Source: Chryseobacterium gleum
GTDB lineage: Bacteria > Bacteroidota > Bacteroidia > Flavobacteriales_C > GCA-002722245
Assembly: GCA_945871895.1 (NCBI GenBank)
Contig: CAMBXP010000003.1
Span: forward strand, 1,160-65,159
Direction of reading: 5' to 3'
Length of the DNA stretch: 64,000 nucleotides
The position numbers and the translations under genes are program-made. The notes beneath the pieces are model-generated. The model saw only the letters and a program-made list of their open reading frames with translations. It was not told the origin of the DNA and searched no databases. Positions 921 through 64,000 of this stretch are shown piece by piece; positions within the stretch are counted from its first letter, which is position 1, and each line of letters opens with the position of its first letter.

Positions 921-1000
921 GAGAAAAGTCAAAAGTTATAAGTGAAAAGCCAAAAAGATGGAAACATCGATTTGGCTTTTTATATTTATACCTTCCATCG

Positions 1001-1215
1001 CCTCGCTTAGGCTTCTTTTGCCTAAGCGATTTTACCACTCTCAAAGCCCCCTCTCTGCTAAGTTTAGCGCAGCGAACTTTGCTGAATCTTTTCCCGAAGC
1101 TTTCAGCTTCAATACACTCGTGATTTCAGATTTTGCGCAGCGAATCTGAAATCTTCATTTTTAGGAATTTTCAATTCCGATAATCGTGCAGAGGCGATTT
1201 CAAATCGCTACAAAA
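1001..1215. repeat. Composite palindromic intergenic repeat (family B, copy 1)
   Basis: The ~59-bp core at 1053-1111 is near-identical to the reverse complement of 62720-62778. Internal hairpins: cgcttagg/cctaagcg, gaagct-ttc-agcttc, gatttcagatt/aatctgaaatc (1122-1153) and gcgatttcaaatcgc (1194-1208). Confidence 0.7.
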
Positions 1216-1232
1216 AATACTTTCAAAGACCT

Positions 1233-1754
1233 TTATTCATTATTCCTTTTATAACCAATTCTTTTTCGCTCTTTCTGAGTAATTTCCTGTTTGTCTTTTT
1301 GCAGTAAATAGTTAATGGCTTCGTACACGTCTTTAAACTGCTTGTTGTAAAGATTTTCTAATTCTTTAATTTTTATAGTAAGTTCTTTGTGATTTAAAGC
1401 AAACTCTTTGAGAGAAATGAACGCTTCAATAATTGCAATATTCATTTTAATAGCCTTTTTACTTTTTAAAACACTGGCCAACATTGTTACTCCGTGCTCT
1501 GTAAAAGCAAATGGAGTTGTGTTAATATTTCTTTTCTTTTGAATTGATGCAGTCACAATTTGTGACCGCATCTTATTCCATTCTTTTGTTGTTAGTCTGA
1601 ACATGAATTTTTCGGGAAAGCGCTCTTCGTTGCGTTTAACTGCTTGATTTAGCACTTTTGTTTCTACTTCATACAATTCCGCCAAATCAAAATCAAGCAT
1701 GATTTTAAGTCCGCGTACTTCATAAATTTTGTGTTGAATTACTTGTAGTTCCAT
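1233..1754 (-). CDS. ORF6N (KilA-N-like, antirepressor-type) domain protein
   Basis: 173 aa. N-terminal ORF6N-like DNA-binding region (YEVRGLKIMLDFDLAELYEVETKVLNQAVKRNEERFPEKFMFRLT) and a charged, coiled-coil-like C-terminus. This family is common on Bacteroidota mobile DNA. Confidence 0.65.
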   Translation of the reverse strand: MELQVIQHKIYEVRGLKIMLDFDLAELYEVETKVLNQAVKRNEERFPEKFMFRLTTKEWNKMRSQIVTASIQKKRNINTTPFAFTEHGVTMLASVLKSKKAIKMNIAIIEAFISLKEFALNHKELTIKIKELENLYNKQFKDVYEAINYLLQKDKQEITQKERKRIGYKRNNE

Positions 1755-1991
1755 CGCAGTTAGGTTTAATAAAAAAATACTGAGGAAGCCCTCTTTTGTT
1801 TAGTGGTGCTAAAATAAAATGAGCTGATGAATTAGAAATAATACGTTTTCATTTCTTTTGAATAAGGATGAGAAGATTTACAGTTTTTAGGAAGCAAATG
1901 CTTGTTTGTTGGCTACCAGAAGGAATTTGGTGCAAGTTAAGAACGGCACTACAACAAAAAACCGTATTTTTGCCCCATTCAAGAATATAAT

Positions 1992-3344
1992 ATGAGCAAA
2001 CCATCTATTCCCAAAGGAACCCGCGATTTTTTACCAGCGCAAATGGTAAAAAGAAATTACTTGTTTGATACACTTAGAAGCATTTTTAAGAAATATGGTT
2101 ATTTGCCTATTGAGACGCCCGCAGTGGAGAATTTATCTACTTTGATGGGGAAATATGGGGAAGAAGGAGATAGATTGATTTTTAAAATTTTGAATTCGGG
2201 TGATTATTTAGGTGGAGTAGAAAACATCACACAACACACTTCAGGTTCTTTAACCAAACATATTTCAGAGAAAGCTTTACGCTACGATTTAACCGTTCCC
2301 TTCGCACGTTTCGTAGTGCAAAATCAAAACGAATTGTCTTTTCCATTTAAGCGATTTCAAATACAACCAGTATGGCGTGCCGATCGTCCGCAAAAAGGTA
2401 GATACCGCGAATTTTTTCAATGCGATGTTGATGTTGTAGGAAGTGATTCGTTAGTGTATGAAATTGAATTCATTCAAATATTTTCTGAGGCATTAACTGC
2501 TTTAAAAGTACCCGGATTCCAAATCAAAATCAACAACAGAAAAATCTTGTCGGGAATTGCCGAAGTAGTTGGTGCTGCCGATAAAATAGTTGATATTACT
2601 GTGGCTATCGATAAGTTAGATAAAATTGGTTTAGAGAAAGTAAACGAAGAAATGCTAGAGAAAGGAGTGAGCAAAGAGGCGGTTGAAAAATTACAACCTA
2701 TCATTCAAATGAGTGGAAGTGCTGCAGAGAAATTTGTTACACTACGATCTGTTCTTTCTTCTTCTGAAATTGGTTTAAAAGGTATTGAAGAATTGGAGTT
2801 TATTTTCAAAAACAGTGAACTATTATCTGTACACTCTAATCTCTATTTAGATATTACTCTAGCTCGCGGATTAAACTATTACACCGGAGCGATTTTCGAA
2901 GTGAGTGCCCAAAACTTTAAAGGCAGTATTTGTGGTGGCGGAAGATACGACGATTTAACAGGAATTTTCGGCTTGAAAGGAATGAGTGGTGTTGGAATTT
3001 CTTTTGGTGCCGACCGTATTTTTGATGTGTTGGAAGAGAACAATTTATTTCCCGAAAACTTAGCACAAACTACCGATGTGTTGTTTGTGAATTTTGGCGA
3101 CGACGAAGCAATGTATTCTATGAAAGTAATGCAGCAATTGCGAGCCTCAGGAGTTAGTTGCGAGTTGTACCCATCGAACGCAAAGATGGGCAAACAAATG
3201 ACCTACGCTGATAACAAAGCTGTTCGTTTTGTGGCCATGATTGGTACCAATGAAATGAATGAAAATAAAGTGTCGTTGAAAAACATGACTACTGGAGAGC
3301 AGTCAATGCTAGCCATTGAAAACTTAATTTCCGTTCTCAAATAA
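1992..3344 (+). CDS. hisS: histidine--tRNA ligase
   Basis: Class II aaRS motif 2 ([32 protein letters not shown]), HisA-type motifs, and a C-terminal anticodon-binding domain. Confidence 0.95.
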
Positions 3345-3391
3345 TCAAGGTCCTAAATGTCATCACCGTCCCCAACGTCCTCTCAATAACT

Positions 3392-4255
3392 ATGAAAGTC
3401 TCAGGTTTCACAATAATTCGCAACGCCATCAAATACGACTTCCCAGCAGTGGAAGCCATCTCATCGGCTTTGCCCTTGTGTGATGAATTTGTAGTAGCTG
3501 TGGGCGATTGTAACGATGGAACTTTAGAGTTAATTCAATCCATAAATTCTCCCAAAATTAAGATTGTACGCACTGTTTGGGAAGAAGAGAAATACCGTTC
3601 AAAAAATTTAGAAATTTTAGCAGTAGAAACCAACAAAGCTTTCAAAGAGATTTCAAAAGATAGCGATTGGGCTTTTTATATTCAAAGCGATGAGGCCTTG
3701 CACGAACAGTATTTGGATAATACTTACAAAGCCATGCAACAGTGGAAAGACAACGAGAGGGTGGAAGGCTTGCTTTTCAACTACAAACATTTTTACGGAA
3801 GCTACGATTACGTTGGTGCTTCACCCCGTTGGTACCGCAAAGAAATTCGCATCATTCGCAATCGAGCCGATATTTTTTCTTACAAAGACGCACAGGGGTT
3901 TCGCAAGCTGCCCAACGATAAGTTGAGCGTTAAACAAATTGACGCTACAATGTATCATTATGGTTATGTGCGCGACCCAAAGAAGTTGGCAGAGAAGATG
4001 AATTTCAATCAGGCGATGCACAGCGACGACCCAAACAAGATGATGCCTTTTTTCAATTATGACGAAGTAGATGCGCTATTTAAATTCGATGGAACACATC
4101 CTAAAGTGATGCAAGAACGCATTGATAAAATGGGGTGGAAATTCGATTTCGATCCTTCTTTTAATAAACTTCGATTGAAAGATAAATTCAAATTGTTTAC
4201 CGAGAAGCTTACAGGGAAAAGATTTGGGGAATACAAAAACTACAAGGAGATCTAG
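3392..4255 (+). CDS. glycosyltransferase family 2-like protein
   Basis: N-terminal GT-A fold signature (FTIIRN...VVAVGDCNDGTLELI, DxD-like) and a DEA motif (IQSDEAL). Confidence 0.5.
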   Translation: MKVSGFTIIRNAIKYDFPAVEAISSALPLCDEFVVAVGDCNDGTLELIQSINSPKIKIVRTVWEEEKYRSKNLEILAVETNKAFKEISKDSDWAFYIQSDEALHEQYLDNTYKAMQQWKDNERVEGLLFNYKHFYGSYDYVGASPRWYRKEIRIIRNRADIFSYKDAQGFRKLPNDKLSVKQIDATMYHYGYVRDPKKLAEKMNFNQAMHSDDPNKMMPFFNYDEVDALFKFDGTHPKVMQERIDKMGWKFDFDPSFNKLRLKDKFKLFTEKLTGKRFGEYKNYKEI

Positions 4256-11336: not shown

Positions 11337-11834
11337 ATGTTAGCAATGGTTCAAACAATACTTCATAATAATCTTCCAGCCACATCAAGAGTTTGGATAT
11401 ACCAAGCCAACAGAATTCTTACTGATGCTGAAGTGAGTAAAGCGAACGATTTTATTCAAGCTTTTTTGCCACAGTGGAAATCGCATGGCAAAGATTTAGC
11501 AGCATCGATTGAAGTGCTTCACCATCTTTTTATCGTTGTTACAGCCGATGAAGGCGTAGAAGCTCCATCGGGCTGTTCTATAGATTCATCTGTGAAGTTG
11601 GTTAAAGAAATCGCCGCAGCTTTAAATGTTGATTTTTTCGATCGATTGGTGATTCCATATCTTCAAGACAACAAGATCTATTTAACCAAGATGTTTCAAT
11701 TTCAAGACAAGTTGAAAGCAGGCGAATTAACTCAGGATACTATCGTTTTCAATAATTTGGTGGATAGTAAAGCGAAACTAGAAAGCACTTGGATTGTTCC
11801 TGTTAAAGAGAGCTGGCATAAGCAATTGTTGTAA
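11337..11834 (+). CDS. conserved hypothetical protein (Bacteroidota-specific, ~165 aa)
   Basis: ORF with no recognisable catalytic motif. It is tightly linked downstream of the Fe-S pair. Confidence 0.4.
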   Translation: MLAMVQTILHNNLPATSRVWIYQANRILTDAEVSKANDFIQAFLPQWKSHGKDLAASIEVLHHLFIVVTADEGVEAPSGCSIDSSVKLVKEIAAALNVDFFDRLVIPYLQDNKIYLTKMFQFQDKLKAGELTQDTIVFNNLVDSKAKLESTWIVPVKESWHKQLL

Positions 11835-11844
11835 AATCTATGTC

Positions 11845-11940
11845 TTCGCAGAGTCAGCTAGAATCTGACTTAAAAAGATTAGGTTCCTTTAAAGAATCTG
11901 ATTGTTCTTCTGTTTTAAGACAGATTCTATCTGTCTCTAC
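11845..11940. repeat. Hairpin repeat (family A, degenerate copy) at a convergent gene junction; likely bidirectional terminator
   Basis: Arms cagagtcagctagaatctgactt ... aagacagattctatctgtctctac. It shares the core AGAATCTGACTT / CAGATTCTATCTG with 57853-57950. Confidence 0.6.
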
Positions 11941-37195: not shown

Positions 37196-37269
37196 GCCGG
37201 TGTAGCTCAGTTGGCCAGAGCAGCTGATTTGTAATCAGCTGGTCGGGGGTTCGAATCCCTCCACCGGCT
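37196..37269 (+). tRNA. tRNA-Thr (anticodon TGT)
   Basis: Manual cloverleaf: acceptor GCCGGTG/CACCGGC, anticodon loop TTTGTAA, T-loop TTCGAAT. No encoded CCA. Confidence 0.88.
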
Positions 37270-37380
37270 CGCAGAGACGGGGAGGGAAAGACAAAGTCAA
37301 TCCCTCCACCGGCTCTTTAAAGCAGTTGGTGGGAGTGAGATTGGAGAGTTTGAAAGGTTCTTTAAAATATTTAGAAAGTT

Positions 37381-37463
37381 GGGGAGATACTCAAGTGGTT
37401 AACGAGGACAGACTGTAAATCTGTTGGTGTACGCCTTCACAGGTTCGAATCCTGTTCTCCCCA
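37381..37463 (+). tRNA. tRNA-Tyr (anticodon GTA)
   Basis: Acceptor GGGGAGA/TCTCCCC, anticodon loop CTGTAAA, long variable arm, 83 nt. Confidence 0.88.
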
Positions 37464-37537
37464 CAAAACATTAGTTTGAGTATCTTATTGATAGCATTTT
37501 TACCAAAAGCTGTTAATCTCAAACAAAAGATAAAAAA

Positions 37538-37610
37538 GCGGGAGTAGCTCAGTTGGTAGAGCATCAGCCTTCCAAGCTGAGGGTCGCGAGTCCGAGTCTC
37601 GTCTCCCGCT
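37538..37610 (+). tRNA. tRNA-Gly (anticodon TCC)
   Basis: Acceptor GCGGGAG/CTCCCGC, anticodon loop CTTCCAA. The T-arm is gcgag-tccgagt-ctcgt, with an unusual C at position 54. Confidence 0.8.
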
Positions 37611-37636
37611 CTTTTTTATTTAAGGCTTATTTATAA

Positions 37637-37708
<72 letters not shown>

Positions 37709-37780
37709 CTACATATTGCGCATTTAAGAAGTTTTTTATTGTAGGTTTAATATATTAATTAATTAAAATTTAAGAAAGTC

Positions 37781-38968
37781 ATGGCTAAAGAAAGTTTCAA
37801 CCGATCAAAGCCACACGTTAACATCGGAACAATTGGTCACGTTGACCACGGCAAAACAACATTAACTGCCGCTATTACAAAAGTGCTATCAGACTTAGGT
37901 CTTTGCGCAGCGAGAAATTTTGACTCTATTGATAACGCTCCAGAAGAAAAGGAGAGAGGTATCACTATCAATACTTCTCACGTTGAGTATGAAACTGCAA
38001 CCAGACACTACGCACACGTAGATTGTCCTGGTCACGCGGATTACGTTAAAAACATGGTTACTGGTGCCGCTCAAATGGACGGTGCTATCTTGGTAGTTGC
38101 TGCTACTGACGGACCAATGCCACAAACTCGTGAGCACATCTTATTAGCTCGTCAAGTAGGTGTACCTAAAATCGTTGTATTCATGAACAAAGTGGATATG
38201 GTTGATGATCCTGAGTTATTAGAGTTAGTAGAGATCGAAATCAGAGAATTATTGTCATTCTATAGCTTCGAAGGTGATACTATTTCAGTTATTCAAGGTT
38301 CTGCGCTTGGTGCATTGAACGGTGAGCCGAAATGGGTTGATACTGTTAAAGCTTTGATGGATGCTGTAGATAAAGATATACCAGTTCCTCCGCGTGAAGT
38401 TGACAAACCATTTTTGATGCCAGTTGAAGACGTGTTCTCAATTACTGGTCGTGGTACTGTTGCTACTGGTAGAATTGAAACAGGTGTTATCAATGTTGGT
38501 GACGAGGTTGAAATCACAGGTTTAACTGAGACTAAACAGATGTCAATCATTACAGGTGTTGAGATGTTCAGAAAATTATTGGACAGAGGTCAAGCTGGTG
38601 ATAACGTTGGTTTACTTTTAAGAGGTATCGATAAAGAAGGAATCAAAAGAGGAATGGTAATGGCTAAGCCAGGATCAATCAAACCTCATAAAAAATTCAA
38701 AGCTGAGGTTTACGTATTGAAGAAAGAAGAAGGTGGTCGTCACACTCCTTTCCACAATAAATACAGACCACAGTTCTACTTAAGAACTACCGACATGACA
38801 GGTGAAATCACTTTACCTGAAGGTCGTGAAATGGTTATGCCTGGTGACAACGTTACTATCACTGTAGATTTGATTATGCCAGTTGCCTTGAACAAAGGTT
38901 TACGTTTCGCAATCAGAGAGGGTGGAAGAACTGTTGGTGCTGGTCAAGTACTAGAGATCTTAGACTAA
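37781..38968 (+). CDS. tuf: elongation factor Tu
   Basis: [22 protein letters not shown] and the canonical length of 395 aa. Confidence 0.98.
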
Positions 38969-38995
38969 TTTAATTGACCTTACTCAAGGTACTGA

Positions 38996-39024
38996 AGCTA
39001 TCCCGATTTTCGGGATAGCTTTTA
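38996..39024 (+). terminator. hairpin terminator after tuf
   Basis: AGCTATCCCGA-TTTT-CGGGATAGCT followed by TTTTAG. Confidence 0.65.
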
Positions 39025-39048
39025 GTGTCCTTACAAAGTTGGGCCTTT

Positions 39049-39121
39049 ACGGGAGTAGCTCAATTGGCAGAGCGTAGGTCTCCAAAACCTGAGGTTGTGA
39101 GTTCGATTCTCCCCTCCCGTG
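39049..39121 (+). tRNA. tRNA-Trp (anticodon CCA)
   Basis: Acceptor ACGGGAG/CTCCCGT, anticodon loop CTCCAAA, T-loop TTCGATT. Conserved tuf-tRNA-Trp-secE position. Confidence 0.85.
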
Positions 39122-42080: not shown

Positions 42081-42114
42081 TTTAGTCTGTCCGTCAACTG
42101 ACGGATCAGACTAA
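42081..42114 (+). terminator. rplL-rpoB intergenic attenuator hairpin
   Basis: TAGTCTGTCCGTCA-AC-TGACGGATCAGACTA, a 14-bp stem with one G.T mismatch, no strong U-tract. It sits at the classical partial-terminator position. Confidence 0.6.
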
Positions 42115-56631: not shown

Positions 56632-57846
56632 ATGTTTAGGAAATTAGCTCTTTTCGTTTTAAGTTGTTTGATGATGAATGCTTGTTCATCACAAGTGCCT
56701 TCGATCACGCCATCTGTTAGCGATCAATATAAGCAAGAAGTAATCATTCCTGTTTTTCAATTAGGCATTGAACGAACTCAAGAATATTTGCCTTTCTTGC
56801 AAGGAAAGAGGGTTGGTGTGGTAACCAATCAAACAGGAGAAATAAGAGGAAAACATTTGCTCGACACTCTGTTAAGTATGAAAGTAAATGTAGTTTGCGT
56901 TTTGGCGCCCGAACATGGCTTTCGTGGTAATGCAGATGCAGGGGCGCATGTAAACGACAGCGTAGATGGCAAAACGGGCGTGAGGATTTTATCCATTTAT
57001 GGTAAAAAGAAGAAGCCATCTAAAGAAATAATGCGAACTATTGACGTGGTGATTTTCGATATGCAAGATGTTGGTGCTCGTTTTTATACGTACATATCTA
57101 CTTTGCATTATGTGATGCAGGCTTGCGCAGAAAATGGCAAGAAATTAATTGTATTGGATAGGCCAAATCCAAACGGAAATTATGTAGACGGACCAATGAA
57201 CGACACCACGTCATTTATAGGTATGCATCCAATCCCGGTAGTGCATGGAATGACGATAGGCGAGTATGCTCAAATGGTTAACGGTGAAGGTTGGTTGGGC
57301 AACAATTTAAAATGCGATTTAAAAGTAATTGAAATGCAGATGTACAATCACCAAATGAAATACGATTTACCTGTGCATCCTTCACCTAATTTGGCGACGA
57401 TGAAATCCATTTATTTGTATCCATCTATTTGCTTTTTTGAAGGCACGGTGATGAGTGTGGGTAGAGGAACTGATTTCGCTTTTGAAGTCTATGGAAATCC
57501 TAATTATTCCGATACTTCATTTTCTTTTACGCCGCGAAGCATCAAAGGAAAAAGCATGGATCCACCCTTAAAAGGAGAGAAATGTTATGGTAAAGATTTG
57601 CGTTTATTGAATGAAGATAGCATTCGCGCTCAAGGCTTAGATTTATCGTATTTGATAGATGCTTATCACAACACTAAAACACAGAATTTCTTCAGCTTAA
57701 AAACACATTTCGATTTGTGTGCTGGTTCTTCTCTATTGAGAAAACAAATTATGGCTGGTATGACTGAAGCTGAGATTAAAGCAACATGGCAACCAGGTTT
57801 GAAGAAGTTTAAAGAAATGAGAGCGACGTATTTGATTTACAATTAA
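56632..57846 (+). CDS. namZ: DUF1343 protein (exo-beta-N-acetylmuramidase NamZ family)
   Basis: Lipoprotein signal (LSCLMMNACSS) and GVVTNQTGEIRGKHLLDTL...VLAPEHGFRG. Confidence 0.8.
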   Translation: MFRKLALFVLSCLMMNACSSQVPSITPSVSDQYKQEVIIPVFQLGIERTQEYLPFLQGKRVGVVTNQTGEIRGKHLLDTLLSMKVNVVCVLAPEHGFRGNADAGAHVNDSVDGKTGVRILSIYGKKKKPSKEIMRTIDVVIFDMQDVGARFYTYISTLHYVMQACAENGKKLIVLDRPNPNGNYVDGPMNDTTSFIGMHPIPVVHGMTIGEYAQMVNGEGWLGNNLKCDLKVIEMQMYNHQMKYDLPVHPSPNLATMKSIYLYPSICFFEGTVMSVGRGTDFAFEVYGNPNYSDTSFSFTPRSIKGKSMDPPLKGEKCYGKDLRLLNEDSIRAQGLDLSYLIDAYHNTKTQNFFSLKTHFDLCAGSSLLRKQIMAGMTEAEIKATWQPGLKKFKEMRATYLIYN

Positions 57847-57852
57847 TGCCTT

Positions 57853-57950
57853 CGTAGAGGCAGATAGAATCTGACTTAAAAAAGACTAATTTCCGCTAAA
57901 AAAATAATGGAATATTTTCTGTTTAAAGTCAGATTCTATCTGCCTCTACG
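57853..57950. repeat. Hairpin repeat (family A) at a convergent junction: 25-bp perfect stem, bidirectional terminator candidate
   Basis: CGTAGAGGCAGATAGAATCTGACTT ... AAGTCAGATTCTATCTGCCTCTACG with a 46-nt A-rich loop. Confidence 0.75.
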
Positions 57951-57957
57951 AAGACAA

Positions 57958-58474: not shown

Positions 58475-59620
58475 ATGAGTGATAAAAGCAACAGAAGAAG
58501 TTTTTTACGCCGTTTAGCCGTAGTGTCGGGTACGGCCGCAGCAGCTCCCTTTCTTGGTTTTGCCAATATGTTCAAAGAAGATACCAATTCAACCTTAAGC
58601 GATATGAATCCAATAAAAAATATTAAACCTTTAGGCTTTCAATGGGAAACAGCCGACCCCTTTTTATTTTGTGTGCATCATGAAGATGCTTTCCCAAAAG
58701 GAAATGAAATGATGGGTCCGAGTAATGAGCATTTTAAAGGCCGACACATGGGCGATGATTTCATTATTAAAGATGGTTTTAGAATGTATCACGGTAAAAC
58801 GGTTCCTGGCTTTCCTGGGCATCCGCATCGCGGATTTGAAACCATCACTGTCGTAAGAAAAGGAATTGTAGATCATGCCGATTCATTAGGCGCAGCAGGT
58901 AGATATGGAGATGGAGATGTGCAGTGGATGACAGCAGGTAAAGGTGTTCAGCATTCTGAAATGTTTCCTTTGATTAAAACAGCAGAAGAAAATCCGATGG
59001 AGCTTTTTCAAATTTGGCTCAACTTACCAAAGGCTAAAAAGATGGTAGAGCCTCATTTTAAAATGTTGTGGAGAGATGTTATTCCCAATCATCAGCATGT
59101 AGATATCAATAATAAAAAGACCAATGTGGAAGTAATTGCAGGTACTTTATTCGAAAAAAAGGCAGCAACTCCTCCGCCAAATTCATGGGCTGCCGATGAT
59201 AAAAATGAAGTGGCGGTATGGAATATCAAAATGGAAGCAGGCGCTACTTTTGCATTGCCTAAAGCCTCTGAGGGGGTGAACAGGAATCTTTATTTTTATG
59301 AAGGAAGTACCTTGAAATTGGCTTCACAAGATATTACTAAATACAGTGCTGTAGATCTTGTTGCGCATATAGATGTTGTTTTACAAGCTGGTGCCGAAGA
59401 AGTAAGTATATTGGTTTTACAAGGTAAACCTATTGGTGAACCTGTTATTCAATACGGTCCGTTTGTGATGAACACCAAGCAAGAAATTCAACAAGCTTTT
59501 GAAGATTATCATGCTACGCAGTTCGGTGGCTGGCCTTGGCCTCGCTACGATCAAGTGCACGATAGAAATAAAACGCGCTTTGCGAAGCACGCCGATGGAG
59601 TAGTGGAGGAGAGAAGCTAA
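58475..59620 (+). CDS. pirin-family (cupin) protein with twin-arginine (Tat) signal peptide
   Basis: RRSFLRRLAVVSGTAAAAPFLGFA Tat motif. Pirin N-domain metal site HPHRGFETIT...E. Confidence 0.8.
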   Translation: MSDKSNRRSFLRRLAVVSGTAAAAPFLGFANMFKEDTNSTLSDMNPIKNIKPLGFQWETADPFLFCVHHEDAFPKGNEMMGPSNEHFKGRHMGDDFIIKDGFRMYHGKTVPGFPGHPHRGFETITVVRKGIVDHADSLGAAGRYGDGDVQWMTAGKGVQHSEMFPLIKTAEENPMELFQIWLNLPKAKKMVEPHFKMLWRDVIPNHQHVDINNKKTNVEVIAGTLFEKKAATPPPNSWAADDKNEVAVWNIKMEAGATFALPKASEGVNRNLYFYEGSTLKLASQDITKYSAVDLVAHIDVVLQAGAEEVSILVLQGKPIGEPVIQYGPFVMNTKQEIQQAFEDYHATQFGGWPWPRYDQVHDRNKTRFAKHADGVVEERS

Positions 59621-59645
59621 GGACTATTTCGGCATATGCCCCGCA

Positions 59646-59719
59646 CGTCATTGCGAGGTACCCCGAAGCAAACTTATTTCGCTCTTGCTAAGGTTGCTTC
59701 GGGGTACCTCGCAATGACG
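59646..59719. repeat. 26-bp perfect inverted repeat (hairpin) between convergent genes
   Basis: CGTCATTGCGAGGTACCCCGAAGCAA (59646-59671) and TTGCTTCGGGGTACCTCGCAATGACG (59694-59719), 22-nt loop, no flanking U-tract. Confidence 0.8.
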
Positions 59720-59728
59720 AACTGAGCG

Positions 59729-60664
59729 TTATTCTGCACTCACCATCTTCGATTTCAGCATTTGCTCTAGTTCTTTAAGCAAAGTGATAGATGCTTCAAT
59801 CTCTTCTTTTTTAATGGCTACACTTTCAATATTGAATCCGAAAGGAATGTTTTTTTCGATGCAATAATTCGATAAAATATCGGCTATTTCAAAGCAAAGA
59901 TCGATGGAGTCTTCTAGAATATTTGCAGAATTAAGCAATCGTGCTTTGTGCTCTTCTTTGATGTGAATGCCCAGCCATTCTAAGAATCCCAATATTTTTG
60001 TTGAACCGCAAGTGCTTAAGGTGAAAATTACGGTTGGTGCTTGCTGGTCGTTTTTTTTGCAGCTCTCTGCTAAAGCCTCTAGCATTTGCATGCTATAATC
60101 TTCGTTGAAAACACATTGTGTTACAAAGTATGAAACGCCACTTTTTATTTTATCAAGCATACGTTGGTCTTCGTCTCCTAGAACGATATGTCGTTCAGGA
60201 ATAGATATAGCGCCAACTACAGATGTTTCTTTATATTTCCACCACAACTCGTATGCTTTTGTTAAAGTGCTTTGAGGCACATAATCAGGTGAAGGAATTC
60301 CTACTAAAACTGGATGCGCCTTTTGCTCCTGTAAATTTTTAAACCATTCACTTAATTCAGCTTCGCTGTATATTCCAGCCGGACGGTAAATAATTTTTTC
60401 AACAACCAATTCATTCAAATGCTCATTTACAAAAGCCAAAGGATCAATAGAAGCTTGAAAAGGGAAGGGACGTTCTTCTTTAGTTCTTGTAGATTCGTCT
60501 TGCACATCATAAACTATCAAGGCATCAATCGGAAGAGATTTCACTCTTTCAATGGTTCTTTTAGCCGATTCTACTACTTTATCTGAAGGAGTTATTTTCT
60601 TGGGCGGAGTAATTCCGTACACCAAAATTCCCGATTCTCTACTCTTTATTTTTTGTAAAAACAT
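59729..60664 (-). CDS. hypothetical protein; weak resemblance to the methylenetetrahydrofolate reductase (MetF-like TIM-barrel) family
   Basis: 311 aa. N-terminal ...VYGITPPKK... is reminiscent of the FEFFPPKT of MetF, with a beta/alpha alternation pattern. There is no strong motif. Confidence 0.3.
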   Translation of the reverse strand: MFLQKIKSRESGILVYGITPPKKITPSDKVVESAKRTIERVKSLPIDALIVYDVQDESTRTKEERPFPFQASIDPLAFVNEHLNELVVEKIIYRPAGIYSEAELSEWFKNLQEQKAHPVLVGIPSPDYVPQSTLTKAYELWWKYKETSVVGAISIPERHIVLGDEDQRMLDKIKSGVSYFVTQCVFNEDYSMQMLEALAESCKKNDQQAPTVIFTLSTCGSTKILGFLEWLGIHIKEEHKARLLNSANILEDSIDLCFEIADILSNYCIEKNIPFGFNIESVAIKKEEIEASITLLKELEQMLKSKMVSAE

Positions 60665-61402: not shown

Positions 61403-62632
61403 GTGCGCATGAAAAGAATCACCAATTATATCAAAAGCAAACATGGTAATTTTTGTTTGCGTCGCGAACCTGTTGAATTTCCTATGTCATTTCACGATTC
61501 TATTTTTCAGGTTTCCGAGGAGCATTGGACTCAAGTTCAAAAAGTAAACAACAATCTTTATTTGAGTTACGACTACTTAAAGGCCTTAGAAGTATCTCAG
61601 CAAAACATTGATTTTAGATATATTCTTTTTTATAAAAACAACAAGCCTGTTGCCATTGCCTATATTCAGGTATTGCAAGTGAAGTTGGCCGATAGCATTA
61701 AAGATGCGATGTGTTCTCCCATGAATTTTGGTAAGAATTTATTAGGCGGAAAAGAATCGAAATTTTTCGTTTGCGGCAATGTTTTTTCTTCAGGTGAAAA
61801 CGGCTTCGCATACACATTAGATTTATCACAGGAAGATGCATACAAAGCATTGATGAACGGCATTTATCGTTTGCGCCGCGCCGAGAAAGTTTTAGGGGAG
61901 GTTACTTCAGTGATTTTAAAAGAGTTTTGGGAGAAGAATTACGACACTCTTTCTGTGATTAAAAAGTACGATTATCGTGATTTTGAAATAGAGCCGAACT
62001 TAGTGATGAAAATCAATTCGGAGTGGAATACTCTTGATGACTATATCGACGATATCACCAAAAAATACAGAAAGAAATACAAGGAAGTGATGAAGAAATC
62101 GGAAGCTATTGTGAGCAAAGATTTGCATGCAGCCGATATTCTTTTTCATTCAGAAAAGATTAAAGAGTTGTTTGATGCGGTGCACGAAAAAGCCGATTTT
62201 AAATTCGGCCATTTTGATGCTTCGGGCTTTCACGACATGAAAAAAAGTTTGGGAGAACAATTTATTTTCAAAGCTTATTTCTTGAATGATGAAATGCTTG
62301 GATTTGCTGCGCTTTTCAATAACTCAGGAGTGTTAGATGCCAATTATGTTGGCTTGAATTACGAGCTAAATACAACGCACTGCATTTACCATAGAATGCT
62401 CTTCGATTTTGTGCAAGTAGCCATGGATAAAAAATGTTCAGAATTGCATTACGGAAGAACCGCGAGCGAAATAAAATCATCGATTGGCGCAGTGCCAGTG
62501 AACATGAAAATATTTATCCGACATAGAAATACCTTGAGTAATAAGCTAATAAAACCTTTATTGAAATTGATACAGCCAAGTCCGTTTGAACAGCGAAATC
62601 CTTTTAAGGAAACTGCTGTTGCGACTATTTAG
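61403..62632 (+). CDS. hypothetical protein (possible GNAT/FemAB-like acyltransferase fold)
   Basis: 409 aa with no clear motif. The start may be the internal Met at ~61484 (MSFHDS...). Confidence 0.35.
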   Translation: MRMKRITNYIKSKHGNFCLRREPVEFPMSFHDSIFQVSEEHWTQVQKVNNNLYLSYDYLKALEVSQQNIDFRYILFYKNNKPVAIAYIQVLQVKLADSIKDAMCSPMNFGKNLLGGKESKFFVCGNVFSSGENGFAYTLDLSQEDAYKALMNGIYRLRRAEKVLGEVTSVILKEFWEKNYDTLSVIKKYDYRDFEIEPNLVMKINSEWNTLDDYIDDITKKYRKKYKEVMKKSEAIVSKDLHAADILFHSEKIKELFDAVHEKADFKFGHFDASGFHDMKKSLGEQFIFKAYFLNDEMLGFAALFNNSGVLDANYVGLNYELNTTHCIYHRMLFDFVQVAMDKKCSELHYGRTASEIKSSIGAVPVNMKIFIRHRNTLSNKLIKPLLKLIQPSPFEQRNPFKETAVATI

Positions 62633-62640
62633 TAATTGAG

Positions 62641-62830
62641 GTATCGCTTAGCACACCCTGCTCCGTTAAGCTTTCAGCTTAGCGGAATTTTTCTTCAAGA
62701 TTTCATCTTGCTTTGTTCATGAAGCTGCAAGCTTCGGGAAAAGATTCAGCAAAGTTCGCTTCGCTAAACTTGGCAGAGGAGGAGATTTTTTTATTTTTCG
62801 AGGTAAGCGGAACTTTGTCATGGTTAAAGG
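62641..62830. repeat. Composite palindromic intergenic repeat (family B, copy 2, inverted relative to copy 1)
   Basis: The reverse complement of 62720-62778 matches 1053-1111 (CTCTGC[C/T]AAGTTTAGCG[A/C]AGCGAACTTTGCTGAATCTTTTCCCGAAGCTT[G/T]CAGCTTCA). Internal hairpins include ccgttaagc/gcttagcgg. Confidence 0.7.
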
Positions 62831-62834
62831 TGTT

Positions 62835-63149
62835 TTAAATTCCTTGAAGTTTCACATTAAAAGTAATTTGCGTATTCAAAGCTTTAAATACTTTTAGTAT
62901 GGTTTCCAATCGGGCATCATTCAAGCTGTTTTCAATCTTCGATATTTGCGCCTTTTGTACACCTACTAGTTTACCCAATTCTTCTTGTGTTAAGTTTCTC
63001 TCTAATCTTGCCTTTTTTACCGCTTCACCCAATAAATCCAAACGAAGTTCATTTTCAAATGCTTCTCTTTTCGGAGTTCCCTTTTTGCCGATGTGTTTGT
63101 CGGTAATTTCATGGAGGGTGTAGGTTTTCATGATTTTTTTCTTTTCCAT
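62835..63149 (-). CDS. higA: HigA-like antitoxin (XRE-family HTH)
   Basis: HTH_XRE: RLERNLTQEELGKLVGVQKAQISKIENS. It starts 5 bp downstream of the toxin gene. Confidence 0.7.
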   Translation of the reverse strand: MEKKKIMKTYTLHEITDKHIGKKGTPKREAFENELRLDLLGEAVKKARLERNLTQEELGKLVGVQKAQISKIENSLNDARLETILKVFKALNTQITFNVKLQGI

Positions 63150-63153
63150 TTGC

Positions 63154-63507
63154 TTATTTTTTTGAATTAAAATATTGTTTTCGCAAACTTTCAGCTTTTT
63201 CTAATTCACCTGATGGTGTTTTTCCTGTCTTTTTAATGAGTCCGTGTGTAGCAATAATTATAGTTTTTTCTTTGCCTGTTTTATCCCAAAAAGCGAAAAG
63301 TCGGTAATGTGTTTTCTTAAATAGAGTTCTAAATTCCCAAATGTCATCATTTAGCTTTTTAAATAATTCTTTATTGTTTGTTGCCCTTGCTTTGTGGATG
63401 TTGTAGATTATCTTTTCTCTTGCCTTTTCATTTAAGCTGTCAAGAAATTCTACAGCATCTTCTAAAAATTCAACGTTGAATTTTGTAGCTGTTTTTTCAA
63501 TATTCAT
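63154..63507 (-). CDS. higB: HigB-like toxin (Gp49-like / RelE-ParE superfamily)
   Basis: FRTLFKKTHYRLFAFWDKTGKEKTIIIATHGLIKKTGKTPSGELEKAESLRKQYF matches the phage Gp49-like (DUF891) toxin signature. Toxin-first gene order. Confidence 0.7.
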   Translation of the reverse strand: MNIEKTATKFNVEFLEDAVEFLDSLNEKAREKIIYNIHKARATNNKELFKKLNDDIWEFRTLFKKTHYRLFAFWDKTGKEKTIIIATHGLIKKTGKTPSGELEKAESLRKQYFNSKK

Positions 63508-63785
63508 GTAAAAATAAAAGTTTCTTATTTAGGAAACAAGTGTTTTCTTGAAAAAACTAAAAAAATGACTTTTGGTTTTTATATAAGAATGTCTTGTTTT
63601 CTATGTTTAGTTAGTTAATGCGAATACAGTAGGAGTTCCATATTGTTAGACAATAAAACTAGTGAACATAGTTTTTATAACTAAATAGTTTTTCAGCGTT
63701 TTTTAACAAGACTCTTGTGTTTTGCATTTATTTTGATTTAGTGAAAGAGGAAAAATAGTAGAGTAGTGCTTTTACTGAGAATCAT

Positions 63786-64000
63786 GTAGTTTCAAATTTG
63801 CAATTTGAAACGAGGTTGTTGCGATTTTTAATCACTTTTTATATTACGCAACGCGATTAAAAATCGCTGAAAAGAAGATTTCAAATTACGCAAGCTAAAT
63901 TTGAAATTACTGGGTAGTTTCAAATTTGCAATTTGAAACTTTGTTATTGCGATTTTCAATCGCTTTTTAAATTACGCAGCGCGGTTAAAAATCGCTGTAC
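63786..64000. repeat. Tandem ~83-bp palindrome-rich repeat (two units plus spacer), truncated by the window end
   Basis: Unit GTAGTTTCAAATTTGCAATTTGAAAC + ...TTGCGATTTT(T/C)AATC...TTACGCA(A/G)CGCG(A/G)TTAAAAATCGCTG at 63786-63869 and 63915-63998. The 45-bp spacer carries a third ATTTCAAAT...ATTTGAAAT palindrome. Confidence 0.75.

Follow-up and report, generated by a model that had tools for sequence, protein, structure and literature searches.

A dispersed two-hairpin repeat of uncultured Flavobacteriales, probably the REP element of a subclass 2.6 RAYT system

Two copies of one unit in convergent intergenic regions

The window analyzed here, a stretch of 64,000 nucleotides from contig CAMBXP010000003.1 of an assembly labelled Chryseobacterium gleum (GCA_945871895.1), contains two full copies of one 60-nt repeat unit, hereafter family B: copy 1 at 1051-1110 (+) and copy 2 at 62721-62780 (-). 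Copy 1 lies between two convergent genes, an ettA-like ABC-F gene (21-920, +) and an ORF6N gene (1233-1754, -; PF10543, E 1.9e-34). The setting of copy 2 is also convergent, with a gene for a 409-aa protein that has no Pfam match and no database record (61403-62632, +) on one side and a HigBA-like pair (62835-63507, -) on the other, the latter consisting of an HTH_3/HigA-like gene (62835-63149) and a Gp49/HigB-like gene (63154-63507) as assigned by Pfam. A first-pass annotation, made from the sequence alone, had described an inverted, near-identical core of about 59 bp at the two loci, next to ORF6N and HigBA genes, and both the core and its neighbors are borne out. Nucleotides 1053-1111 match 62778-62720 at 56 of 59 positions (E ~1e-21, blastn-short), and in a repeat search of the window the arms reach 69 nt (1043-1111 and 62720-62788) with 90% complementarity. 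Each of the short hairpins listed in the annotation can be located, namely gaagctttcagcttc (1096-1110), gatttcagatt/aatctgaaatc (1122-1153) and gcgatttcaaatcgc (1194-1208). The 312-nt spacer that carries copy 1 (921-1232) has a folding potential far above that of shuffled sequences (z = -6.4, + strand).

A coding role was considered and rejected. The open reading frames (ORFs) 958-1149 and 62713-62838 lie on opposite strands of the repeat and have no Pfam match; moreover, the unit copies differ by +1 and -1 nt indels, and the repeat is therefore not coding. ORF 958-1149 had already been called spurious, which holds, but also entirely internal to the repeat, which does not: it begins upstream, within a terminator-like hairpin, and overlaps the repeat block. 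A gathering-threshold scan of the whole window against Rfam 15 passes tRNAs only and gives no family for the repeat regions, and permissive scans of 900-1260 and 62600-64000 return matches at chance level only.

Architecture of the unit

Unit boundaries were taken from the positional information content of 44 distinct copies, which rises abruptly at position -2, at the CT before CTGC, and falls off right after AGCTTC, so that the ends are sharp. The unit measures 60-62 nt and reads CT-CTGC(T)AAGTT-TAGCG(N)AGCG(T)A-AACTTTGC-TGAATCTTTTCYYG-AAGCT-TTC-AGCTT-C. It opens with CT-CTGC, which is followed by the imperfect hairpin H1, by a linker rich in T (TGAATCTTTTC) and by a second hairpin of 6 bp (H2, GAAGCT-TTC-AGCTTC). 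The stem of H1 is AT-rich, spans 8 bp and contains a conserved T.T mismatch; a GC-G(N)NA-GC mini-hairpin forms its apex. In copy 1, the arms of H1 are GCTAAGTT and AACTTTGC, with the T.T mismatch and the apex GC-GCA-GC, followed by the linker TGAATCTTTTCCC and by H2 as GAAGCT TTC AGCTTC. Neither end of the unit (CTCTGCT... and ...CAGCTTC) is an inverted copy of the other, and the flank profiles of the copies contain no direct repeat or target-site duplication (TSD).

The hairpins are conserved as pairs. In an alignment of 27 distinct units, from which the covariance model R1 was built, 94.6% of cells are paired in the two-hairpin structure, versus 22-54% with slid partners. Compensatory changes occur at three pairs; among them, the base of H2 goes from G..C to C..G and the H1 apex from GC/GC to CC/GG. 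Columns 9/32 hold a conserved mismatch, seen in 17 of the 27 sequences. An alternative H1 fold available to RNA only (11 bp with three G.U pairs), which appears in the minimum free energy (MFE) structure of copy 2, is lost in copies with loop insertions, and the palindromic stem with its mini-hairpin is therefore preferred.

Dispersal in related genomes

In a scan of species genomes, an exact 20-mer of the core has true copies in two metagenome-assembled genomes (MAGs), Flavobacteriales nzgw151 and one labelled Chryseobacterium. Half of the eight matches (loci L003, L004, L005 and L007) are chance occurrences inside unrelated Firmicutes and Alphaproteobacteria genes, and viral contigs have no exact match to the 20-mer. 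A gapped pattern with an unconstrained H1 loop yields 58 instances at 41 metagenome loci with unrelated flanks. At least 17 of the instances come from the contigs of one metagenome, and many lie at contig ends, as is usual for multi-copy repeats, which break assemblies. The R1 model detects 87 units in 47 loci, over 329 kb of related metagenome and MAG contigs; copy numbers are counted over these pooled contigs rather than per single genome. The units occur as singletons, as tandem pairs (in the window, L012, L038, L054 and L056) and in about 14 distinct tail-to-tail doublets with spacers of roughly 10 nt. Taken alone, the window, where only two full copies are found, would be consistent with a chance match or with a segmental duplication limited to these two loci, the latter an outcome that the first-pass annotation had envisaged. 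An E value near 1e-21 and the 58 pattern instances and 87 model matches in other contigs, within unrelated flanks, make this explanation vanishingly unlikely.

An associated transposase-like gene

A gene of 181 codons is flanked by inverted units in 13 related loci (L016, L019, L022, L026, L044 and L052-L059). Eight of them (L052-L059) were retrieved through the identity of the protein, without recourse to the repeat; here, too, units lie within about 110 nt of the gene, with L059, a contig of 635 nt, carrying only fragments, at both ends. Partial copies of the gene at contig ends are seen in L016, L022 and L044. Typically, one or two co-oriented units precede the gene and one or two inverted units follow it, starting 1 nt past the stop codon. 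The unit abutting the stop codon in L054 is identical to window 1050-1110 at 61 of 61 positions; the 409-aa gene of L054 is unrelated to the 409-aa gene of the window.

The copies at L026 (2758-3303) and L019 (8659-9204) pass the NCBIfam model NF047646 (REP_Tyr_transpos) with 103-105 bits (cut-off 80) as well as Pfam Y1_Tnp. Homologs of the protein, 622 at E <= 1e-10, are found across the Bacteroidota, and the names given by their sources, where there are any, are RayT or REP-associated tyrosine transposase (RAYT; REP, repetitive extragenic palindrome). MSNHxH, QFW and Y-I-(H/Q)-x-N-P are invariant in 10 aligned homologs and take the form MSNHVH, QFWQ and EYI(Q/H)QNP in the 181-aa protein. The signature of RAYT subclass 2.6 (Bertels group 5) is a length of about 179 aa with NH[LIV]H, WQ and YIH[QN]NP, and its members are mostly from Bacteroidetes (Quentin et al., 2018, PMC6006769, Table 1). 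Flanking these genes are 'atypical secondary structures' that lack GT[AG]G, have weaker stems and are also present at other places in the genome (PMC6006769). Classified from NCBIfam, Pfam and sequence motifs, the 181-aa protein is predicted to be an HUH/Y1 RAYT (TnpA_REP) of subclass 2.6 (Bertels group 5), a domesticated transposase whose catalytic motifs are intact; the gene and the inverted units that bracket it constitute a REPtron. A phmmer search of the PDB with this protein gives nothing at E <= 1.

More distant relatives preserve part of the arrangement. Two loci (L060 and L061) encode a RAYT of 64% identity whose flanking units keep AAGTT-TTAGCGAAGCGTA-AACTT, with the second hairpin co-varied to AAGGC-TGT-GCCTT. 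Downstream of this gene, a (GTAA)n microsatellite is situated between the REP units (L060 964-1018, L061 910-963).

Near-identical units at unrelated loci, with sharp ends and no TSD, indicate that family B is a replicating element. Very probably, it represents the lineage-specific REP/REPIN elements of a subclass 2.6 RAYT system in an uncultured low-GC group of Flavobacteriales. The first-pass annotation had called the repeat REP/MITE-like. Its REP half is supported by the dispersed, extragenic hairpins, by their tandem and inverted clusters and by the flanking RAYT in relatives; its other half, the miniature inverted-repeat transposable element (MITE), is not supported for single units, which have neither terminal inverted repeats (TIRs) nor a TSD.

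The same loci bear on a related explanation, in which the units would be either MITEs or the termini of an insertion sequence (IS), classical or of the IS200/IS605 type, with the RAYT gene and its flanks as the autonomous element and the solo units as its debris. Long-form elements indeed look like structures of about 150 nt with inverted ends, and RAYT loci differ between genomes, one of them being placed between hisS and ettA (L053). In addition, the identical 181-aa RAYT is observed in two contexts, purL-RAYT-coaX (L054, L056, L057) and pho regulon-127 aa-RAYT (L055). Either a REPtron has moved recently or the assembly of the second context is chimeric through the flanking repeat, the latter being considered because the contig ends at the RAYT gene. 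Against an IS or MITE origin, the 60-nt units have no TIRs, no copy is surrounded by a TSD, and the protein, although it passes the equivalog model for RAYTs, stays below the cut-off of the IS200 model (23-25 bits versus 55). The flanking units also have the inverted arrangement of REPtrons, unlike IS200/IS605, whose left and right ends are co-oriented, and units in general far outnumber RAYT genes. This origin is thus very unlikely.

Several observations weigh against the assignment of family B to a RAYT system. The window itself has no RAYT by tblastn, and the pointers to one in its own genome are indirect: locus L056, from a sample with a similar accession (ERZ27280192), and the 61/61 unit of L054. 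Exact 20-mer matches number only two per MAG. The GT[AG]G tetranucleotide, a hallmark of canonical REPs and not of those of subclass 2.6, is missing at the foot of the hairpin, where CT-CTGC(T) is conserved instead. The papers considered yielded no biochemistry for a subclass 2.6 RAYT. Finally, the flank comparison provides no orthologous empty site for a family-B unit, all loci having been chosen because they have one; transposition of units is therefore a proposal, with recombination between units or slippage as alternatives.

Position and orientation relative to genes

All units are intergenic and none falls in a credible gene. Most are at gene 3' ends, often beginning 0-12 nt past the stop codon, and convergent genes surround at least 11 distinct loci, divergent ones 1-4. 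In co-directional contexts, 10 units are in sense and 5 in antisense orientation (6 and 3 for singletons), which is not significant; convergent contexts carry no orientation information and were set aside in this count. Within doublets the 5' ends face outward, and each convergent gene reads one unit in sense. Three of the four units of the window are picked up as terminator-like through H1 and its T-rich linker, where 0.1-0.3 would be expected from shuffled sequences. Read 5' to 3', each unit is a hairpin with a U-rich tract after it. The insulator activity envisaged in the first-pass annotation is at most possible: H1 and its linker do resemble a terminator, but the units have no significant orientation bias.

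The units might accordingly be viewed as primarily functional RNA or transcription signals (terminators or 3'-UTR stabilizers) under selection, their link to the RAYT being incidental. The placement at 3' ends, the terminator-like potential, the outward-facing doublets and a doublet that is more conserved than the neighboring coding sequence (see below) all argue for such a role. On the other side stand the non-significant orientation bias, the weak AT-rich stems, the lack of an Rfam match and the position of copy 1 downstream of a separate, canonical terminator-like hairpin (945-990). Above all, near-identical copies at dozens of unrelated loci, together with a bracketed transposase, are unlike independently evolved terminators. 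As a primary function this is unlikely; as a secondary, exapted role it is compatible with REP elements. Transcription could possibly be attenuated or terminated, or 3' ends protected, by units that adjoin stop codons and by doublets lying between convergent genes.

Variation between strains and links to accessory genes

Among strains that are 97-100% identical in the flanks, the locus of copy 1 occurs as three structural alleles. The window and L009, which is the window's own contig, contain unit B and a diverged tandem unit, B'; L010 has an extra 67-bp module, which sits in the region of B' (1119-1178); and L012 carries a 112-bp tandem duplication that includes unit B. In a Joint Genome Institute (JGI) contig with an identical ORF6N protein, the spacer is only 182 nt long. 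The array at the end of the window varies too: it spans 131 nt in the window and 394 nt (1950-2343) in L034, a strain of 98.5% identity, an expansion of about 260 nt. Units are thus gained and lost between close strains. They can also persist, since the doublet of copy 2 is retained at the orthologous site of MAG nzgw151 (L006) at a divergence of about 25%: the adjacent gene there is 73-75% identical at the DNA level, the other neighbor is different, and conservation is higher in the doublet than in the coding sequence beside it.

Accessory genes may turn over at the same places. In L036 and L043 (92-95% identical), window position 62782 is joined straight to 63539; L034 contains the HigBA insert. 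The joint is situated about 5 nt outside the 5' edge of copy 2, with no visible TSD. At the other end of the window, L053 (GCA_026390935.1) is syntenic (hisS 77%, ettA 85% identity). Its hisS-ettA interval (2851-4164) comprises a RAYT, inverted units and a 129-aa gene without a Pfam match, and the corresponding interval of the window (922-1956) comprises ORF6N and the REP cluster. The hisS-ettA interval is a variable slot, and together with the HigBA insert it is suggestive of two cases of cassette turnover at REP clusters. The flanking of accessory genes noted in the first-pass annotation is correct for the two window copies but is not a property of the family. Across family B, neighbors are mostly housekeeping genes (IlvC, enolase, PurL, CoaX, HisIE, carboxyltransferase), and the accessory-gene link is local.

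Composition of the window clusters

The features of the window clusters are collected in Table 1. The block 1001-1215 is a cluster of different subfamilies, formed by a CGCTTAGGC hairpin module, B, B' and a partial module, and is BIME-like (BIME, bacterial interspersed mosaic element). In the MFE fold, GCAGAG (~1188-1193) pairs with CTCTGC (~1053-1058) and closes the whole cluster. The hairpin module is a separate REP-type subfamily adjoining unit B: its layout, a hairpin followed by ...accactc(c/t)caaagcc, recurs in L062, directly upstream of a RAYT of 59% identity, and GCTTAGGC/GCCTAAGCG hairpins come after units in L021, L039, L046 and L051. In B', which retains the apical TTGCGCAGCGA and the H2 loop TTC, both stems are swapped (GATTTCAGATT/AATCTGAAATC and GGAATT/AATTCC); H1' reads GATTTCAGATT-TTGCGCAGCGA-ATCTGAAATC, the linker TTCATTTTTA and H2' GGAATT TTC AATTCC. 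Upstream of the cluster, the hairpin at 945-990 is probably the intrinsic terminator of the ettA-like gene, to judge from its sequence, and is outside the repeat family; a simple terminator scan omits it because its loop exceeds 8 nt.

Copy 2 forms a REPIN-like, heterodimeric tail-to-tail doublet with an inverted partner, separated by a 10-nt spacer. The partner has no apical mini-hairpin (CTCCGTTAAGCT-TTC-AGCTTAGCGG, linker AATTTTTCTT, H2 CAAGAT TTC ATCTTG). It begins 27 nt past the stop codon of the 409-aa gene and is flagged as terminator-like, with an 11-bp stem and ATTTTTCTTC. The units of the terminal array have loops like TTACGCAACGC and stems like GCGATTTTTAATC and belong to the same superfamily; R1 matches them weakly, at 63853-63911 (-; 19.5 bits, E 0.0025) and 63917-63963 (+; 11.3 bits).

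Table 1. Features of the repeat clusters in the 64-kb window and their basis.
Feature	Position	Strand	Description	Basis
Candidate terminator of ettA-like gene	945..990	+	A-tract, 10-bp hairpin AAAAGCCAAA...TTTGGCTTTT, T-run	MFE fold, sequence
Hairpin module	1003..1046	+	TCGCTTAGGC-TTCTTTT-GCCTAAGCGA and tail ttttaccactctcaaagcc	10-bp perfect hairpin
Unit B, copy 1	1051..1110	+	CT-CTGC, H1, linker, H2	R1 90.2 bits, E 1e-21
Diverged tandem unit B'	1119..1178	+	same architecture	R1 31.9 bits, E 1.5e-6, full model length
Partial module	1186..1208	+	GTGCAGAGG, then palindrome GCGATTTCAAATCGC	sequence
Inverted partner of copy 2 (iREP-like)	62659..62710	+		R1 37.9 bits, E 4e-8
Unit B, copy 2	62721..62780	-		R1 84.9 bits
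HigBA insert	62783..63538	-	756 bp, strain-variable	strain comparison, Pfam
Tandem array	63786..64000	.	128-nt period, 89% identity between periods, runs off window end	repeat search

Comparison with known systems

The closest counterparts are the REPs of subclass 2.6 RAYTs (PMC6006769). Both systems have a Bacteroidota host and a RAYT with the NHVH, WQ and YI(H/Q)xNP motifs (181 aa here), and both have hairpins without GT[AG]G, with weak AT-rich stems and recurring copies, which in family B are dispersed units. In the portion of Table S1 considered, some REPs share with family B the stem, the internal loop and the GC-GAA/GCA-GC apex, or else a TTAGCATAGCG apex with a TGCT/CTGT foot (entries of P. 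brasiliensis and P. saltans); no sequence in that portion matches family B. However, the REPs of that study are given as single short hairpins found by eye, whereas family B is a defined 60-nt module of two hairpins with sharp ends, heterodimeric doublets and stem-swapped subfamilies.

With the REP/BIME elements and REPtron of E. coli (group 2) and the REPINs of Pseudomonas (group 3), family B shares extragenic palindromes with stem irregularities (PMC8266576, PMC3333891), inverted pairs, tandem clusters, strain-variable numbers of units and one bracketed transposase-like gene, and, with E. coli, a CT at the edge of the unit. In contrast to these elements, family B has no GTAG, a longer two-hairpin unit, AT-rich rather than GC-rich stems and a RAYT of another subclass. 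The GTAG and CGTC superfamilies are likewise small dispersed palindromes that form dimers (Di Nocera et al., 2013, PMC3733652), and CGTC-type repeats occur in Bacteroidetes (PMC3733652). Family B carries neither tag, its foot being CTCTGC/GCTA, and, unlike CGTC repeats, it has a dedicated transposase. Similar to IS200/IS605 ends and MITEs (Correia, RUP, Nezha), the units are small, structured, non-coding, multi-copy and intergenic, with an enzyme related to HUH Y1 transposases; they differ in having no TSD or TIR in the basic unit, a RAYT rather than an IS200 score, and inverted flanking units.

REP/RAYT systems are well studied in Proteobacteria, and in the papers considered the subclass specific to Bacteroidetes is noted only for its 'atypical secondary structures' (PMC6006769). 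Family B is new as a family, although the kind of repeat is already known. It is not surprising, but it is moderately useful in that it offers the poorly characterized subclass 2.6 a well-delimited candidate substrate: a two-hairpin unit, heterodimeric doublets and stem-swapped subfamilies that share an apical loop. Its natural alleles and REPtrons could guide the biochemistry of DNA recognition by RAYTs. It also accounts for hairpin-rich blocks between genes and for fragmented assemblies in these Flavobacteriales, in which ORFs called within such blocks are spurious and near-identical strains vary most at their REP clusters.

A possible mechanism

By analogy with TnpA_REP of E. coli and with IS200/IS605, the RAYT would bind the folded, single-stranded H1, using the mismatch and the apical loop for recognition and strand choice. 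It may then nick at the edge of the unit, where the CT of the 5' boundary is conserved; E. coli TnpA_REP cleaves at CT (PMC3333891, PMC8266576). Units would be copied or moved on single-stranded DNA, probably as doublets.

A more specific proposal combines these steps. The RAYT would recognize mainly the G(N)NA-capped GC mini-hairpin and the mismatch rather than the stem sequence, nicking at unit edges would create cassette joints, and doublets would act as bidirectional terminators. The idea of cassette joints comes from the HigBA insert, about 5 nt from a unit edge, and from the presence of ORF6N in the slot that a RAYT occupies in the syntenic MAG. If the proposal is true, stem swapping would be allowed, and one enzyme could serve B, B', the array at 63.8 kb and the units of the 64%-identical RAYT; domesticated REPs would both punctuate transcription and seed the turnover of accessory genes. 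Taken as a whole, this combination is rather doubtful.

Nested insertions and other repeats

Some units contain further palindromes. L024 (4430-4502) and L046 (4044-4096) form a precise filled/empty pair, in which a 20-nt palindromic insert, CCTGCCTACCGGCAGGCAGG, is located in H2 of the partner unit; the insert is present in L024 and L023, absent from the orthologous L046 unit, and shows no TSD. Several units (in L016, L017, L020, L029 and L044) carry an entire 15-nt hairpin, TCCCGATTCTCGGGA, in place of the 5' arm of H2 (AAGCT). A 12-bp hairpin at window 38995-39021, just upstream of a tRNA at 39049, has a near-copy of it, TCCCGATTTTCGGGA, as its apex. The palindrome (T)CCGTCAGCTGACGG(A), found at window 42082-42114 and in L030, L032, L033, L035, L041, L047 and others, caps many hairpins with unrelated outer stems. 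In places it is enclosed by family-B units (L026, L030) or by CGTCATTGCGAG palindromes (L035, L047), and it looks like a palindrome nested in a palindrome. The end of contig L014 (1-70) joins a Nextera adapter (CTGTCTCTTATACACATCT...) to a truncated unit, which is an artefact of assembly or adapter in the deposited sequence.

A second repeat family consists of inverted doublets whose arms start with GTAGAG (GTAGAGGCAGATAGAATCTGAC...), at window 57809-57956 and 11803-11940 and at L002 6597-6704; within the first of these, 57847-57956 holds GTAG-tagged REP-like units in a hairpin with 48-nt arms. These doublets resemble the 'double foot' GTAGAG... REPs of Bacteroidetes subclass 2.4 RAYTs among the Table S1 entries considered (PMC6006769). 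A third type, CGTC-tagged, is represented at window 59646-59719 by a 26-bp perfect inverted repeat starting CGTCATTGCGAGG; around it (59610-59735), 126 nt are replaced by 173 nt in L036. Copies of ...CGCAATGACG adjoin family-B units in L008, L033, L035 and L047. Unrelated to family B, five tRNA genes are clustered at window 37196-39121 (Rfam tRNA, 61-73 bits).

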